Shown here: positions 14,592-26,052 of the stretch, one piece after another
How positions within the stretch are numbered: position 1 is the first letter of the stretch
Layout of the letters: each line of letters opens with the position of its first letter
Assembly: GCA_964406835.1 (NCBI GenBank)
Contig: CAYOTH010000001.1
Coordinates: 1 to 32,993 of the forward strand
Direction of reading: 5' to 3'
Length of the DNA stretch: 32,993 bases
Source of the DNA: an uncultured Oscillospiraceae bacterium
GTDB lineage: Bacteria; Bacillota; Clostridia; Christensenellales; Aristaeellaceae
The notes under the pieces: generated by a model
Seen by the model: the letters and a program-made list of their open reading frames with translations, nothing else
The model's database searches: none
Told to the model about the DNA's origin: nothing
Translations under genes and position numbers: made by a program

Positions 14592-14620
14592 TTGACAAAT
14601 AATGTTATGAAGTATATAAT
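14592..14620 (+). promoter_or_regulatory. Consensus sigma-A promoter in an AT-rich intergenic island upstream of the sipW locus
   Basis: TTGACA (14592-14597), exactly 17 nt, then TATAAT (14615-14620). It lies about 50 nt upstream of the sipW ATG. Confidence 0.55.
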
Positions 14621-14668
14621 GGATGACGAAAAGAACGAACGGCGGCCGAGCCGCGAGCGGGGTGCGGT

Positions 14669-15283
14669 ATGAAAGTTTTTCGGAAGATCTGGGGTATCGT
14701 GACCACGCTGGCCGTGATCGTCGTTGTGGCGCTGGCCGTGCTGCTGGCCGGTGTGCGTGTTGTGGGGCTGACGCCTTATGCCGTGCTTTCCGGCTCGATG
14801 GAGCCGACGTACCATGTCGGCTCGCTGATCTACGTGCGCGATGTGGCGCCCGAGGATATCCAAATCGGCGATCCGATCACCTTCGTGGTCAACGAGGATC
14901 TGCTGGTGGCCACGCACCGCGTGGTGGATATCGCCGTGGAGACCACCAAGACGGAGACCGTTGCCAACGAGGAAACCGGCGAAGAGACAACCGTCGAGGT
15001 TCCGCTCGACGAACCGGCGTACTATTTCCAGACGAAGGGCGACGCCAACGACGAGGTTGACGGCTCGGCGGTTTACTACAAGAACCTGGTCGGCCGCCCG
15101 GTCTTCTCGATTCCCTATCTGGGCTACCTCTCAAGCGCCCTGCAAACGCGCCGGGGCATGATTCTGGGGATTACTGCGGCGCTGGTGCTGATGCTCATGC
15201 TCTTCATGCCGGATATTCTCCGCGCGGCGGACGAATCTGACCGCAAGAAGGCCCAGAAGAAGGCCGACGCCCCCAAGGACTGA
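14669..15283 (+). CDS. sipW: Signal peptidase I, SipW/ER-type (S26B)
   Basis: N-terminal TM, then VLSGSMEPTYHVGSLIYV (catalytic Ser box), ATHRVV (His box) and KGDANDEVD. A C-terminal TM is present. There is an acidic Thr/Glu-rich insertion between the boxes. Confidence 0.85.
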   Translation: MKVFRKIWGIVTTLAVIVVVALAVLLAGVRVVGLTPYAVLSGSMEPTYHVGSLIYVRDVAPEDIQIGDPITFVVNEDLLVATHRVVDIAVETTKTETVANEETGEETTVEVPLDEPAYYFQTKGDANDEVDGSAVYYKNLVGRPVFSIPYLGYLSSALQTRRGMILGITAALVLMLMLFMPDILRAADESDRKKAQKKADAPKD

Positions 15284-15351
15284 TGTAAGGCCAAGAACGG
15301 CATTGCATAATTTTTTCCGATGACCCGAAGAGGGAGAAGGAGGACAAGATC

Positions 15352-16014
15352 ATGAAGAAGACCCGCAAGATTCTGGCGATGGCCGCCTGTGCCGTGCTGC
15401 TGGTGAGCATCAGCATCGGCGCGACCGTGGCCTACCTGACGAGCACCGCTGAGGTTCAGAACACCTTTACCGTCGGTAAGGTTGCGATTACTCTGGATGA
15501 GGCGAAAGTTGGCAATGACGGTAAGGCGCTGACTGGCGAGAATGCTGATCGTGTGAAGGAAAACAGCTATCACCTGTATCCTGGTCATGATTACGATAAG
15601 GATCCTACTGTGACCGTTAAGCAGGGCAGCGATGCGTCGTATATCAAGCTGGTCGTTACGGTCAACAAGAAGAAAGAACTGGATGCGATTTTCACAGCTT
15701 TGGCCAAAGAGACTCCCGCCATTAAGCTGACGGATGTTGTTCTTGGCTATGATTCGAACCAGTGGGTGTTGAAGTCGAATACCTATGACGATACCGAGAA
15801 TACTCGCACCTACGAGTTCTGGTACAAGGACATTGTTGCTGCGCCGAGCACCGACGTGAAGCTGGAAGCGCTCTTTGATCAGATCAAGGTTCCGGGATGC
15901 ATCACGAGCAAGCAGCTTGCGACCATTTCTGATTTAAGCATCAATATCACCGCGCACGCCATTCAGGCTGACGGCTTCAAGGATGCTACGGCTGCCTGGG
16001 ATGCATATAAGTAA
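15352..16014 (+). CDS. SipW-dependent-type signal peptide protein, TasA/camelysin-like (paralogue 1)
   Basis: N-terminus MKKTRKILAMAACAVLLVSISIGATVAYLTSTAEVQNTFTVGKVAITLDE, compare B. subtilis TasA ...GGGTWAAFND...ATFASGTLDL. Good RBS (GAAGGAGG). Confidence 0.8.
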   Translation: MKKTRKILAMAACAVLLVSISIGATVAYLTSTAEVQNTFTVGKVAITLDEAKVGNDGKALTGENADRVKENSYHLYPGHDYDKDPTVTVKQGSDASYIKLVVTVNKKKELDAIFTALAKETPAIKLTDVVLGYDSNQWVLKSNTYDDTENTRTYEFWYKDIVAAPSTDVKLEALFDQIKVPGCITSKQLATISDLSINITAHAIQADGFKDATAAWDAYK

Positions 16015-16090
16015 CCCCGGGGTTTACGCCTAAGCCCACACCACATCGAAGGAACACGGAGGCGGGCTTCGATCGGCTTCCGTTTTCCCT

Positions 16091-16130
16091 GCCGGGGCAA
16101 AGTCTCACCGCCTAGCCCCGGCTTTATATT
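16091..16130 (+). terminator. GC-rich hairpin plus T-rich tail after paralogue 1 (possible partial terminator)
   Basis: gccggggc / 16-nt loop / gccccggc, followed by tttatatt. Confidence 0.4.
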
Positions 16131-16154
16131 GATTATTGACAGGAGGTACGGACC

Positions 16155-24154: not shown

Positions 24155-24167
24155 AGGAGGCGTTCAT

Positions 24168-24794
24168 ATGAAACAGTTTTTGAAAGTATGCGGCGTGCTC
24201 CTGGTGGCGCTTGGACTGCTGTGCTCCAGCGCGCTGGCCGAGGATGCGGCGGTGCGCTATGAGGGCGGCGCGGAGAAATTCGTCTTCCTGCCCGGCAGTA
24301 TGCAATCCGACAGTGATCTTTTTGCCAACTTCAAGGATGTTCTGCCCGGCGATGTGATCGAGCAGAAGATCACCGTGAGCAACAAGACCGGCAAGCAGGT
24401 GCGTATTTATCTGCGTGCTGAGCCGGTGACCGAGGCCGACCGCGATTTCCTCAGCCAGCTGAAGCTGAACGTGAAATCCGGCTCCTCGGAGATCTTCGAG
24501 GGTGCGGCCAGCGAACAGGACGGCCTCGCCGAAAATACCCTGCTTGGTACGTTCAAGAAGGACGGCTCCGTCGAGCTGACGGCGACGCTTACCGTGCCGC
24601 ATGAGCTGGGCAATGCCTATATGGGCCGCGAAGGCACTGTGCCGTGGACGTTCCTCGTCGAGGAAATTCCCGTGGACGATACGCCGCAGACCGGCGACTG
24701 GTTCAGCCTGCCTGTGTGGGGTGCGCTGGCGGCGGCTGTGCTGCTGGCACTCGCGGCGGCTTTCGTGCTGAATCGACGCGCCCGCAAGGCCTGA
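24168..24794 (+). CDS. Cell-wall-anchored protein with ordinary Sec signal peptide, TasA-like core motif and C-terminal PQTG sorting signal
   Basis: Start after AAAGGAGG, signal peptide MKQFLKVCGVLLVALGLLCSSALA. Core motif DVLPGDVIEQKITVSNKTGKQVRIYLRAEP. The C-terminus is DDTPQTG (24681-24695), a hydrophobic stretch (WFSLPVWGALAAAVLLALAAAFVL) and a basic tail (NRRARKA). Confidence 0.75.
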   Translation: MKQFLKVCGVLLVALGLLCSSALAEDAAVRYEGGAEKFVFLPGSMQSDSDLFANFKDVLPGDVIEQKITVSNKTGKQVRIYLRAEPVTEADRDFLSQLKLNVKSGSSEIFEGAASEQDGLAENTLLGTFKKDGSVELTATLTVPHELGNAYMGREGTVPWTFLVEEIPVDDTPQTGDWFSLPVWGALAAAVLLALAAAFVLNRRARKA

Positions 24795-24803
24795 CACATT
24801 TTA

Positions 24804-24837
24804 CCGGGAGGGCAGTTCGCCTTCCCGGTTCTTTTTT
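24804..24837 (+). terminator. Rho-independent terminator between the anchored-protein gene and the sortase region
   Basis: ccgggaggg (24804-24812) pairs with ccttcccgg (24820-24828) with one G-U pair, followed by ttctttttt. Confidence 0.65.
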
Positions 24838-24847
24838 GAGGTGAAGC

Positions 24848-24988
24848 ATGAAGAAAAAACATAGGGGACGGTGGCTGATAGCGCTGCTTGGGCTGATTTT
24901 GGCCGTGATCGCCGCCGTGATTGTCTATAAAACACGCGAATATGCCGCCGGGAACGCGTTTTATGATTCCCTGCGCGGCGCGAGGTGA
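24848..24988 (+). CDS. 46-aa small membrane ORF resembling the N-terminal anchor of class B sortases
   Basis: Sequence MKKKHRGRWLIALLGLILAVIAAVIVYKTREYAAGNAFYDSLRGAR, with GAGGTG 4 nt upstream. Its TGA (24986-24988) lies 3 nt before the sortase ATG, in a different frame. It is below the ORF-track length cut-off. Confidence 0.4.
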   Translation: MKKKHRGRWLIALLGLILAVIAAVIVYKTREYAAGNAFYDSLRGAR

Positions 24989-24990
24989 CT

Positions 24991-26052
24991 ATGAAACGAT
25001 ATTGTGCGCTGATGCTGGCGGCGCTTCTGGCGGTTGCATCTGCTGGGCGAGCGCTGGCTGAGATGACGCCGGAGGAGAGCGACGCGCTTTTGGTCGAGGC
25101 GCTCTTTGCGGCGGCGGCTGGGACGACGCAGGCTGCCGAAAAGCAGGCGGCCGAAGAACTGACCGAGGAGGAGTTGGCCGCGCATCGGGCCGATTTGGCC
25201 GAGTATCGCCGTTTGGCGCGCGTGTGGCTGATCGCTGTTTTGGCCGAGCCGATGGACGAGCAGACGCTGTCTTCGCCTGAGCCGACGGCGACGCCCGCGC
25301 CGGATGCCCTGCCGACGCCTACGCTCGAGGAGGCCTTTGAGGCGGTTTCCGAAAACGAGTTGGGGCGCGCGTATCTGGAGCGCCTTGAGGCGAAGACGCA
25401 GGACGAATGTCTTGAGGAAACGCGCCTGGCGGCCGGGCGCTGGTTGGGGCAGATTGACGCGCAGGCACTTACGGAAATGAACGAGGATTATGCCTGCTGG
25501 CTGTATGCGCCCGGCACGCTCATCGATTATCCGGTCGTTCAGGGCGAGGACAACAATTATTATCTGCATCGGCTGTTTAATGGCGAGAACAACGCCTGCG
25601 GTACGCTGTTTATCGATTACCGCAATCTGGCCGGGTTTCTGGACCCGAACACGCTGATTTATGGGCATCATATGCGCAATGGCAGCATGTTCAAGGCTAT
25701 TACGTTTTATGCCGAGCAGACGTATTTCGACAGCCACCCCTATATGCTGATCGTGACGGGCGAAAAGCGCTATCTGCTCGAGTTGTTTGCAGGGTATCTG
25801 ACCTCGAAGGACGATCATTGCTACGACATCGCCATCAGCGATGCCGAGGATCTGGCGGCGTTCGTCAGCGAGGCGCGCGCCAAATCGAATTTCGAGACTT
25901 CGGTGGAGATTGAACCGGGCGATCGGCTGGTTACGCTCTCGACCTGCGCCTATGCCTTTGAAAACGCGCGCTACATTGCCATTGGCCGACTGAATGAGAT
26001 CAAGCCCGTTGCCGGGGCCAGCGATGCGCCGGGCGAGGCGATACAGCCATGA
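24991..26052 (+). CDS. srtB: Class B sortase with an unusually long Ala/Glu- and Pro/Thr-rich N-terminal linker
   Basis: Contains EMNEDYACWLYAPGTLIDYPVVQGEDNNYYLHRLFNGENNACGTLFIDYRN, LIYGHHMRNGSMF (His), VTLSTC (Cys) and RYIAIGRL (Arg). The N-terminal hydrophobic segment is MKRYCALMLAALLAVASAGRALA. Confidence 0.85.
   Translation: MKRYCALMLAALLAVASAGRALAEMTPEESDALLVEALFAAAAGTTQAAEKQAAEELTEEELAAHRADLAEYRRLARVWLIAVLAEPMDEQTLSSPEPTATPAPDALPTPTLEEAFEAVSENELGRAYLERLEAKTQDECLEETRLAAGRWLGQIDAQALTEMNEDYACWLYAPGTLIDYPVVQGEDNNYYLHRLFNGENNACGTLFIDYRNLAGFLDPNTLIYGHHMRNGSMFKAITFYAEQTYFDSHPYMLIVTGEKRYLLELFAGYLTSKDDHCYDIAISDAEDLAAFVSEARAKSNFETSVEIEPGDRLVTLSTCAYAFENARYIAIGRLNEIKPVAGASDAPGEAIQP

Follow-up and report, generated by a model that had tools for sequence, protein, structure and literature searches.

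A probable SipW-dependent TasA/BsaA-type fiber operon with a sortase-anchored TasA-like subunit in an uncultured gut Clostridia bacterium

Fibers of the TasA/BsaA type are best known as released biofilm matrix, and the locus described here raises the question of whether such fibers may also be held at the cell wall by a sortase. The locus lies in a stretch of 32,993 nucleotides (hereafter, the window) from an uncultured Oscillospiraceae bacterium (GenBank assembly GCA_964406835.1, contig CAYOTH010000001.1, positions 1 to 32,993 of the forward strand). It comprises eleven consecutive plus-strand open reading frames (ORFs), which span 14669-26052 in the ORF list of the window and are a genuine eleven-gene operon. 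Its host is an uncultured member of the gut Clostridia, with Aristaeellaceae and Candidatus Faecivicinus as relatives. In gene order, the products are the signal peptidase SipW, four TasA/BsaA-like paralogs (P1 to P4), a CHAP peptidoglycan hydrolase, a large adhesin with a VWA domain, a fifth paralog (P5), a protein with a PQTG sorting signal (referred to here as the anchor protein), a 46-residue membrane protein and the class B sortase SrtB. Sequence comparison establishes the identities of these components, the homology of the six TasA-like proteins, their conserved linkage, the intact catalytic motifs and the SrtB-type sorting signal. We consider it probable that the locus is a SipW-dependent BsaA/TasA-type surface-fiber operon with a sortase-anchored TasA-like subunit, while our confidence in any specific order of the subunits is much lower than that in the overall fiber reading.

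The protein that bears most directly on the question is the anchor protein (24168..24794, plus strand), in which 208 residues hold an ordinary signal peptide, then a TasA-like core that is divergent, and lastly a sorting signal made up of TPQTGD, the transmembrane segment WFSLPVWGALAAAVLLALAAAFVL and NRRARKA at the C-terminus. No family in Pfam or NCBIfam matched it. Profile-profile comparison with hhalign, using family alignments made from 84 related loci, linked the anchor family to that of P4 with a probability of 94% and an E-value of 1.2e-7 (36 versus 32 sequences), and with larger alignments these values were 97.3% and 1.8e-11. The aligned region takes in the common motifs PGD-x-L-T-x-x-I-x-V-x-N...Y-x-R and LGNEYM, and the assignment of the anchored protein as a divergent TasA-like domain that shares the core of the paralogs is supported by these comparisons. 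The AlphaFold2 model of the anchor protein was mediocre (pLDDT 66), with the invariant N-terminal strand disordered, and its fold matches were weak (E-values of about 2e-3 or weaker). Many of these matches, not all, were donor-strand pilins, including CS20, PapA, type 1 and 7ueg, the last being a TasA-like archaeal bundling pilus. About 78 of 84 anchor homologs have P-x-T-G, with Asp as the usual next residue, and this P-x-T-G-D motif matches the (S/P)PXTG motif that SrtB of Clostridioides difficile cleaves between T and G (PMC4155245). The family is also large, with >400 close homologs, 2465 clusters at 50% identity (E<=1e-3) and 381 matching stretches in a one-genome-per-species collection. 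Its carriers are gut and rumen Clostridia (Aristaeellaceae, Candidatus Faecivicinus, Christensenellales, Oscillospiraceae and Lachnospiraceae), and one of the genomes with an anchor-family cluster is that of a cultured strain, Hespellia stercorisuis DSM 15480 (contig NZ_FQZY01000013.1).

Linkage of the anchor gene to the other genes was assessed by calling ORFs in the 80 best loci from species-level genomes and classifying them by iterated profile searches seeded with the window proteins; the denominators given are the loci with enough flanking sequence, and the upstream flank was 10 kb. The order that recurs begins with SipW and continues with two to five TasA-like genes, the last of them of the P4 type, a CHAP gene in some loci, a large adhesin gene, a P5-type gene, the anchor gene and, where present, the small ORF and SrtB. 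In 74 of 75 loci, the gene immediately 5' of the anchor gene is TasA-like, a large adhesin gene is found 5' of it in 38 of 46, and SipW is located within 10 kb 5' of it in 32 of 46. SipW went undetected in some loci because very large adhesins push it outside the flank. These comparisons demonstrate that the genes are co-inherited as a set whose order is constant among many Clostridia. An initial annotation of the window, made from the sequence alone, had proposed that the PQTG protein is a TasA-like subunit tied genetically to SipW and the paralogs, and both the profile comparison and the position of the anchor gene bear this out. It had also considered that the anchor protein and the sortase might prove to be unlinked to sipW loci in other genomes. 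This is not the case for the anchor, and linkage of the sortase is partial, with SrtB within 400 bp 3' of the anchor gene in 29 of 69 loci.

The five paralogs are all encoded on the plus strand. P1 (15352..16014, 220 residues), encoded by the first gene 3' of sipW and put forward as the likely major subunit in the initial annotation, matched the SipW-cognate signal profile TIGR04088 with 31 bits (cutoff 19) and PF12389 with 20.0 bits, just under the gathering score of 22.5. P2 (16155..16838, 227 residues, GTG start) was over the TIGR04088 cutoff with 21.5 bits, while P3 (16921..17736, 271 residues) matched both PF12389 (23.7 bits) and TIGR04088 (37.7 bits), as did P4 (17916..18473, 185 residues; 28.6 and 31.5 bits, respectively), whose type is always encoded just 5' of the adhesin block. 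P5 (23603..24154, 183 residues), of a type always found between adhesin and anchor, had no TIGR04088 match at E<=0.01, yet has the same GGTVAYL...NTF N-terminus. There was no direct PF12389 match for P2, P5 or the anchor. By hhalign, P1 to P5 are mutually homologous over their full lengths (probability 99.5-100%, E-values of 1e-22 to 1e-39), with E-values against the P4 family of 1e-36 for P1, 2.9e-24 for P2, 1.5e-36 for P3 and 2.7e-32 for P5, and of 2.9e-39 for P2 against the P1 family. The start of P4 is most likely the ATG at 17916, which gives the 185-residue length of its database homologs; NCBI labels these homologs 'TasA family protein' or 'SipW-dependent-type signal peptide-containing protein'. 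Homolog searches returned close relatives only, and BsaA (UniProt Q8XN23) was not among the matches. When the PDB was searched by sequence with P1, with the VWA protein and with the P4-family profile, no structure of TasA, CalY or an adhesin was retrieved, and the link to TasA comes entirely from Pfam, profile-profile and fold comparison.

The fold comparison was made with an AlphaFold2 model of P4 (pLDDT 86.8, core above 93), a beta-sandwich in which residues 22-36, corresponding to the signal cleavage region and the predicted donor strand, are disordered. A disordered donor segment has also been reported for BsaA monomers (PMC11580942). In Foldseek, the TasA fiber 8aur_A matched this model with a probability of 1.0 and the best TMq (0.50), but with an E-value of 2.2e-3 and at rank six, and the donor-strand pilins CfaB, Csu and PsaA were likewise among the top matches. 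Such a fold counts against the idea that the paralogs are secreted, monomeric metalloproteases of the camelysin type (peptidase M73) or other enzymes, an idea suggested by the name (Peptidase_M73, camelysin) of the Pfam family to which P3 and P4 belong. We rejected the camelysin protease reading based on the absence of an HExxH motif from all eleven proteins of the operon, and we give an enzymatic role of the paralogs almost no credence. The peptidase name itself is a likely misidentification of CalY (PMC11580942).

A role as fiber subunits is further suggested by residues known from Clostridium perfringens BsaA, in which donor-strand exchange is followed by a covalent lock: E56 catalyzes an intermolecular isopeptide bond that joins the donor-strand residue N35 to K74, and V33 and F37 flank N35 within the hydrophobic core (PMC11580942). 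The TasA of Bacillus differs in that it lacks the N-E-K triad and forms non-covalent fibers (PMC11580942). The donor strands of the window paralogs read V-Q-N-T-F in P1, V-K-N-T-F in P2 and P5, A-T-N-T-F in P3 and A-Y-N-V-I in P4, and the V-x-N-x-F pattern agrees with V33, N35 and F37 of BsaA when compared by published positions. Each of the five has a Glu 13 residues past the donor Asn (L-x-E; L-D-E in P1), and the strand v-d-K-v-v-x-v-x-N-x-G supplies a Lys (K72 in P4). In the related loci, Asn, Glu (+13) and Lys (about +37, or +20 in P5) are jointly present in 45 of 91 early-position genes, in 43 of 50 genes of the P4 type and in 52 of 75 of the P5 type, and the median Asn-to-Lys spacing is 35-37 residues (20 in P5) versus 39 in BsaA. 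The triad in P1 to P5 is, based on these patterns, a well-supported candidate for the "exchange-and-lock" mechanism of BsaA. The initial annotation had envisaged a fiber made by donor-strand exchange; since the paralogs keep the donor Asn, Glu and Lys as in the BsaA triad, such a fiber would probably not be held by non-covalent contacts only.

The two enzymes of the operon that would act on these proteins retain their catalytic residues. SipW (14669..15283, plus strand, 204 residues) is a signal peptidase I of the endoplasmic reticulum (ER)/archaeal type (TIGR02228, 84.9 bits, cutoff 51.85; Peptidase_S26, 25.4 bits) with intact SGSMEP (41), THRV (82) and GDAN (124) boxes, although it falls below the Bacillus-specific equivalog NF046067 (84.9 bits versus 190). 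SrtB (24985..26052, plus strand, 355 residues) is a class B sortase (TIGR03064, 190.9 bits, cutoff 153.75) with the catalytic motifs GHH, TLSTC and NAR, and its closest solved relatives are the SrtBs of Listeria monocytogenes, C. difficile and C. perfringens (E-values of 4e-35 to 1e-33). Together with the SipW-cognate signals of the paralogs and the CHAP+SH3b and VWA assignments, these identifications had been made in the initial annotation and are upheld by curated-profile scores and intact motifs.

SrtB carries its own signal peptide, which is lipobox-like in loci L001, L003 and L013, and an extra, conserved N-terminal region of about 130-150 residues that holds VEALFAAAAGTT and matches no family. 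Immediately upstream is the gene of the 46-residue single-pass membrane protein (24848..24988, plus strand), the stop codon of which overlaps the srtB start codon. Its orthologs in 18 other loci have a transmembrane segment and the motif E-Y-x6-(F/Y)-Y-D-S-L-R, a degree of conservation that marks it as a real gene. The fuller form of this motif, R-E-Y-x-x-G-x-x-F-Y-D-S-L-R, resembles the N-terminal membrane anchor of the normal-length SrtBs of the more distant loci L044, L058 and L068, and the sortase gene appears to be in two pieces, a small membrane ORF and an ORF for the catalytic part. This arrangement is present at 24848-26052 of the window and in L001, L003, L005-L011, L013, L015, L018, L022, L024, L025 and L054.

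The anchor protein differs from the paralogs in that it lacks the triad, having Phe38 at the donor-Asn site, Gln66 at the Lys site (in 81 of 82 sequences) and no aligned Glu. Its N-terminal strand, V-x-Y-x-G-x-A-x-x-F-x-F-x-P-G-S, is near-invariant across 82 homologs, down to 37% identity, and such conservation of a donor-like strand points to an interaction in trans. The strand fits a subunit that would still take part in strand exchange yet would not be covalently locked.

We also observed that residues 50-72 of the anchor protein contain the near-invariant polar residues D50, K56, D62, Q66 and N72 in one predicted hairpin, with K56 and Q66 equidistant from the P-G-D turn. K56 and Q66 could form a salt bridge with a structural role or a cross-link within the molecule, or the lysine could be a sortase acceptor. 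The presence of K56 in 80 of 82 sequences, within the conserved motif D-L-F-x-N-F-K, might be taken to mean that the product is a sortase-polymerized pilus in which SrtB links anchor subunits head to tail via Lys56, with SipW and the TasA-like proteins as chaperones or accessories. The pili encoded by the FCT region of Streptococcus pyogenes offer a precedent of sorts, as their assembly depends on a signal-peptidase-like factor together with a class B-type sortase; the streptococcal SipA/LepA chaperone, however, is not known to carry the catalytic boxes, all of which SipW retains, and the paralogs have SipW-cognate signals. Moreover, the anchor is the only window protein with a sorting signal, none being present in the VWA adhesin or in P1 to P5, no YPKN-type pilin motif is evident, and the sortase is often non-adjacent in related loci. 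We consider this explanation very unlikely. With regard to classification, a sorting signal on a single protein places the locus outside the sortase-assembled pili, and its sortase is of class B, not class C.

A more serious alternative to a wall-anchored fiber is that the operon encodes a released biofilm-matrix fiber and that the PQTG protein and SrtB are a separate, neighboring pair of surface-protein genes. BsaA polymers of C. perfringens strain 13 are mainly extracellular or membrane-associated, and deletion of srtB in that strain left both the polymers and the pellicle unaltered (PMC7395162, PMC11580942). In the window, srtB is set apart from the structural genes by a terminator- or attenuator-like hairpin with a U-run (24803..24829, plus strand), located between the anchor gene and the 46-residue ORF, and in 40 of 69 related loci SrtB is not adjacent. 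The stem of the hairpin has 11 pairs, 8 of them G-C, and is followed by TTCTTTTTT; its folding energy is -24.5 kcal/mol (z -3.67 versus shuffled controls), and it is kept in the nearest relative, L005 (L005 10637-10661). The cluster may consequently not be one uniform transcript, and since the approximately 20 nt between the hairpin and the start of the small ORF are too little for a promoter of their own, the small ORF and srtB would need read-through. What makes the released-fiber explanation unlikely in our view is the anchor protein, which is itself TasA-like (E 1.8e-11), retains a near-invariant donor-like strand, and is encoded directly 3' of a TasA-like gene in 74 of the 75 related loci, with a gap of 13 nt here; this placement is hard to explain for an unrelated neighbor.

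The srtB deletion phenotype and the frequent non-adjacency of SrtB also weigh against our own reading of a fiber operon with a sortase-anchored subunit, and several other points do so as well. The absence of the Asn and Lys from the anchor leaves its mode of joining the fiber uncertain. The Asn-to-Glu spacing is 13 residues in the window paralogs versus 21 in BsaA. The cutoff of 60 for TIGR04090, the BsaA family, was not reached by P4 (56.7 bits), P5 (43.7 bits) or P3 (38.0 bits), and these matches were confined to the first 80-90 or so of 241 profile positions, that of P4 spanning the signal, the donor strand and the Lys strand. The Foldseek E-values were weak (about 1e-3) for both the P4 and the anchor models. 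Finally, the system is known here from its genes, and all that is said of it beyond homology and synteny is inference.

Under the reading that we favor, a wall-anchored TasA/BsaA-type fiber, the paralogs would be exported by the Sec pathway and remain tethered to the membrane until cleavage by SipW, which would free the donor strand V-x-N-x-F to complete the beta-sandwich of a neighboring subunit by donor-strand exchange. The donor Asn and the acceptor Lys/Glu would then lock the joint by an intermolecular isopeptide bond, as in C. perfringens BsaA. SrtB would cut the anchor between T and G of PQTG and attach it to peptidoglycan, and the anchor, with its donor-like strand and no triad, would join the polymer non-covalently and form the wall-bound, proximal end. 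The adhesin would be recruited by its C-terminal DUF7601/DUF5979 module together with the P5-type subunit, the CHAP-SH3b protein would be a clade-specific accessory for wall remodeling or wall passage, and the hairpin after the anchor gene would keep expression of the small ORF and srtB below that of the structural genes.

The adhesin (20438..23587, plus strand) has 1049 residues, an ordinary signal peptide and a VWA domain (36.1 bits, cutoff 23.8) with the residues of the metal ion-dependent adhesion site (MIDAS) present in DQSGS (79), GGTQT (403) and FTDG (436). The initial annotation had given it pilin-like CnaB/SpaA domains at the C-terminus; we could verify one such domain rather than several, matching DUF7601 (36.7 bits) and DUF5979 (34.7 bits), both over cutoff, and SpaA weakly. 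The proteins at the same position in L001 (1408 residues) and L003 (2818 residues) have only the last 100 or so residues in common with the window adhesin, at about 40% identity. This common module is DUF7601/DUF5979 and is succeeded by a conserved tail, W-L-x-G...N-x-F, which lies outside the domain models and forms the last 30 or so residues of the VWA protein (window 23498-23587). When the adhesin was scored with a matrix built from 169 donor strands, the tail segment TNTDNVFTSGG was the top match (12.7 bits; next 6.7 bits). Across the loci, the top match was within the last 45 residues in 10 of 55 adhesins, and some of these matches were to the last CnaB strand; the possibility that the adhesin tail mimics a donor strand is thus a weak lead.

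A P5-type subunit is present exactly where a DUF7601-type adhesin is present (55 of 55 loci), and in the loci without such an adhesin a P4-type gene precedes the anchor gene (11 of 11). From this we infer that the DUF7601/DUF5979 module may be the docking part of an exchangeable adhesin, with P5 as its partner, although the co-occurrence could equally mean a short complex of adhesin, P5 and anchor and not a fiber-borne VWA protein. Six loci (L042, L048, L060, L067, L073 and L080) have a variant architecture without the DUF7601-type adhesin and the P5 type. In those variant loci whose large ORFs were inspected, proteins of 600-2200 residues open with a signal of the SipW type and then a TasA-like domain (GSTFAWFTDSVTS...N.IK.G.L). 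They are encoded ahead of a P4-type gene, after which come the anchor gene and a gene of the P1 type.

Multiple paralogs per TasA-family operon have been taken to suggest heteropolymers (PMC11580942). Extending this to the window, one could picture an ordered heteropolymer that is a Gram-positive counterpart of chaperone-usher pili, in which position-specific paralogs would serve as shaft, adaptor and terminator, donor-strand exchange and Asn-Lys locks would join them, a triad-less anchor fixed by SrtB would form one end, and interchangeable giant adhesins would be docked via DUF7601/DUF5979 with a donor-mimicking tail that pairs with P5. We put this forward tentatively, as a picture that is rather doubtful in its entirety. 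The likeness to chaperone-usher and archaeal TasA-like bundling pili is in any case one of analogy and not of membership. It consists of donor-strand complementation of incomplete Ig-like subunits, the presence of several specialized paralogs per operon (adaptor or terminator types, for example) and the inclusion of CfaB, PapA, Csu, CS20 and 7ueg among the top fold matches of the P4 and anchor models, whereas the window has no chaperone or usher, a Gram-positive envelope, a likely covalent lock and a putative sortase-anchored base.

The closest known system is the sipW-bsaA-bsaB-bsaC operon of C. perfringens, in which BsaC is a VWA protein and srtB is a neighbor (Obana 2020, PMC7395162; Kivimaki et al. 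preprint, PMC11580942). Most strains of this species have a BsaB-like protein bearing LPXTG, and tethering of the BsaA polymer to peptidoglycan by an LPXTG-bearing BsaB and SrtB has already been proposed, as speculation (PMC7395162, PMC11580942). TasA-family operons in general often include LPxTG, SpaA, signal-peptidase and sortase genes along with several paralogs (PMC11580942). Like the window, the bsa locus has SipW, several TasA-like proteins with SipW-type signals, a secreted VWA protein without a sorting signal, a neighboring class B sortase, a sorting-motif protein in most strains, and V-x-N-x-F with Glu and Lys. In contrast, the window has five paralogs versus two or three, each position having its own cross-species orthologs, and its anchor belongs to a dedicated, diverged and triad-less family that is last in order, after the VWA gene. 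Its srtB is downstream, on the same strand and split, a CHAP hydrolase is present, and there is no adjacent two-component system or set of type IV pilus genes. P3 to P5 also lie under the TIGR04090 cutoff. For BsaA, BsaB and BsaC, the comparison was with their published descriptions.

With tapA-sipW-tasA of Bacillus subtilis and sipW-tasA-calY of Bacillus cereus, the locus shares PF12389 (in P3 and P4), the predicted dependence of export on SipW and, in the model of P4, a beta-sandwich with a putative N-terminal donor strand, and 8aur has the best TM-score among the PDB matches of the P4 model. In addition to the difference in the triad, the Bacillus operons have no LPXTG-type subunit or VWA adhesin and carry accessories of the TapA or CapP type that are absent from the window. 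Sortase independence has been described for the Bacillus matrix-fiber systems (PMC13082335).

The SrtB of C. difficile resembles that of the window in being of class B (E-value of 1e-34 between the window sortase and chain 5gyj), and the anchor family has [ST]P-x-T-G-D ahead of a transmembrane segment and basic residues, which agrees with the C. difficile motif (SPKTGD, for example). It differs in being a housekeeping enzyme for diverse adhesins and hydrolases that lies outside any fiber operon, and the window sortase has the extra N-terminal region and its own signal peptide. Sortase pili (SpaABC, and the S. pyogenes FCT pili with SipA and a class B-type sortase) have in common with the window a VWA adhesin, a SpaA/CnaB-like domain, a base subunit anchored to the wall (putatively so in the window), and an operon sortase together with a factor of the signal-peptidase family. 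Their differences from the window are its one sorting-signal protein, its putative shaft of TasA-fold proteins without sorting signals or pilin motifs, and its signal peptidase, which looks catalytically competent.

The initial annotation had presented the locus as a possibly new hybrid of two systems. The combination is not new, given the sipW-bsaABC and srtB genes of C. perfringens and the anchoring model already proposed for them, and the window is a richer example of the kind described in that species; further literature searches found nothing more specific than the C. perfringens bsa reports and the TasA-family preprint. Because the concept is already in the literature, the gain lies in breadth and detail and not in a new principle. 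What is new is modest: a large unannotated anchor family, the co-occurrence of P5 with the adhesin and the split sortase gene. The value of these data is that they describe a wall-anchored version of the TasA/BsaA fiber that would be widespread in gut Clostridia, and define its anchor family, its P5-adhesin pairing and a cultured carrier. If the reading is correct, many uncultured gut Clostridia would display TasA/BsaA fibers as wall-anchored adhesive appendages with swappable giant adhesins, which would bear on the gut attachment of abundant commensals. The compact gene set and the presence of a related cluster in the cultured H. stercorisuis DSM 15480 would permit a test of the sortase-anchored tether that is speculative in C. 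perfringens.

The CHAP and SH3b peptidoglycan hydrolase (18489..20426, plus strand) is a secreted protein of 645 residues (CHAP, 43 bits, cutoff 26; SH3_3, 35.6 bits) with the catalytic motifs WCGMF and GHVG and with PT/AT-rich linkers that are matched as PT repeats in Pfam. The linkers are long and of low complexity, (AT)n and (PTEV)n, and there is a Cys-rich C-terminal segment, CTGEDCTGETCACACH. The last residues of the signal peptide, MTAC, may be a lipobox. Only 13 of 46 loci have a CHAP gene 5' of the anchor gene, which makes it a clade-specific accessory.

Transcription of the operon would start from a sigma-70-type promoter, TTGACA-17-TATAAT (14592..14620, plus strand), which lies 5' of sipW, matches the consensus at 12 of 12 positions and is the sole perfect match within 14000-26600; the eleven same-strand ORFs are thus located behind a perfect promoter, just as the initial annotation had described. 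Ribosome-binding sites of the GGAGG type precede all eleven genes, and between P4 and the anchor gene consecutive genes are only 11-15 nt apart. In the P3-P4 intergenic region (17733-17880) there are two neighboring strong hairpins (approximately 17764-17792 and 17793-17831) with no U-run, which fold at -63.4 kcal/mol (z -5.76 versus shuffled sequence) and could be an mRNA processing or stability element. A bsaA-like terminator was sought after P1, where there is a weak hairpin with UUUU that is not significant (z -1.26).

The genes that flank the operon encode Dus, a rhamnosidase, a GT2 glycosyltransferase, an ABC transporter and an AddA-type helicase, and the GC content has no step at either border of the cluster. 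We rejected an origin from a mobile element or phage because these flanking genes are housekeeping genes and the GC content is steady across both borders. One of the flanking genes, that for the alpha-L-rhamnosidase at 6421-9290, is split into overlapping ORFs (6421-6954 and 6933-9290) between which Bac_rhamnosid_N is divided; either a frameshift, a pseudogene or an error of assembly accounts for the split.

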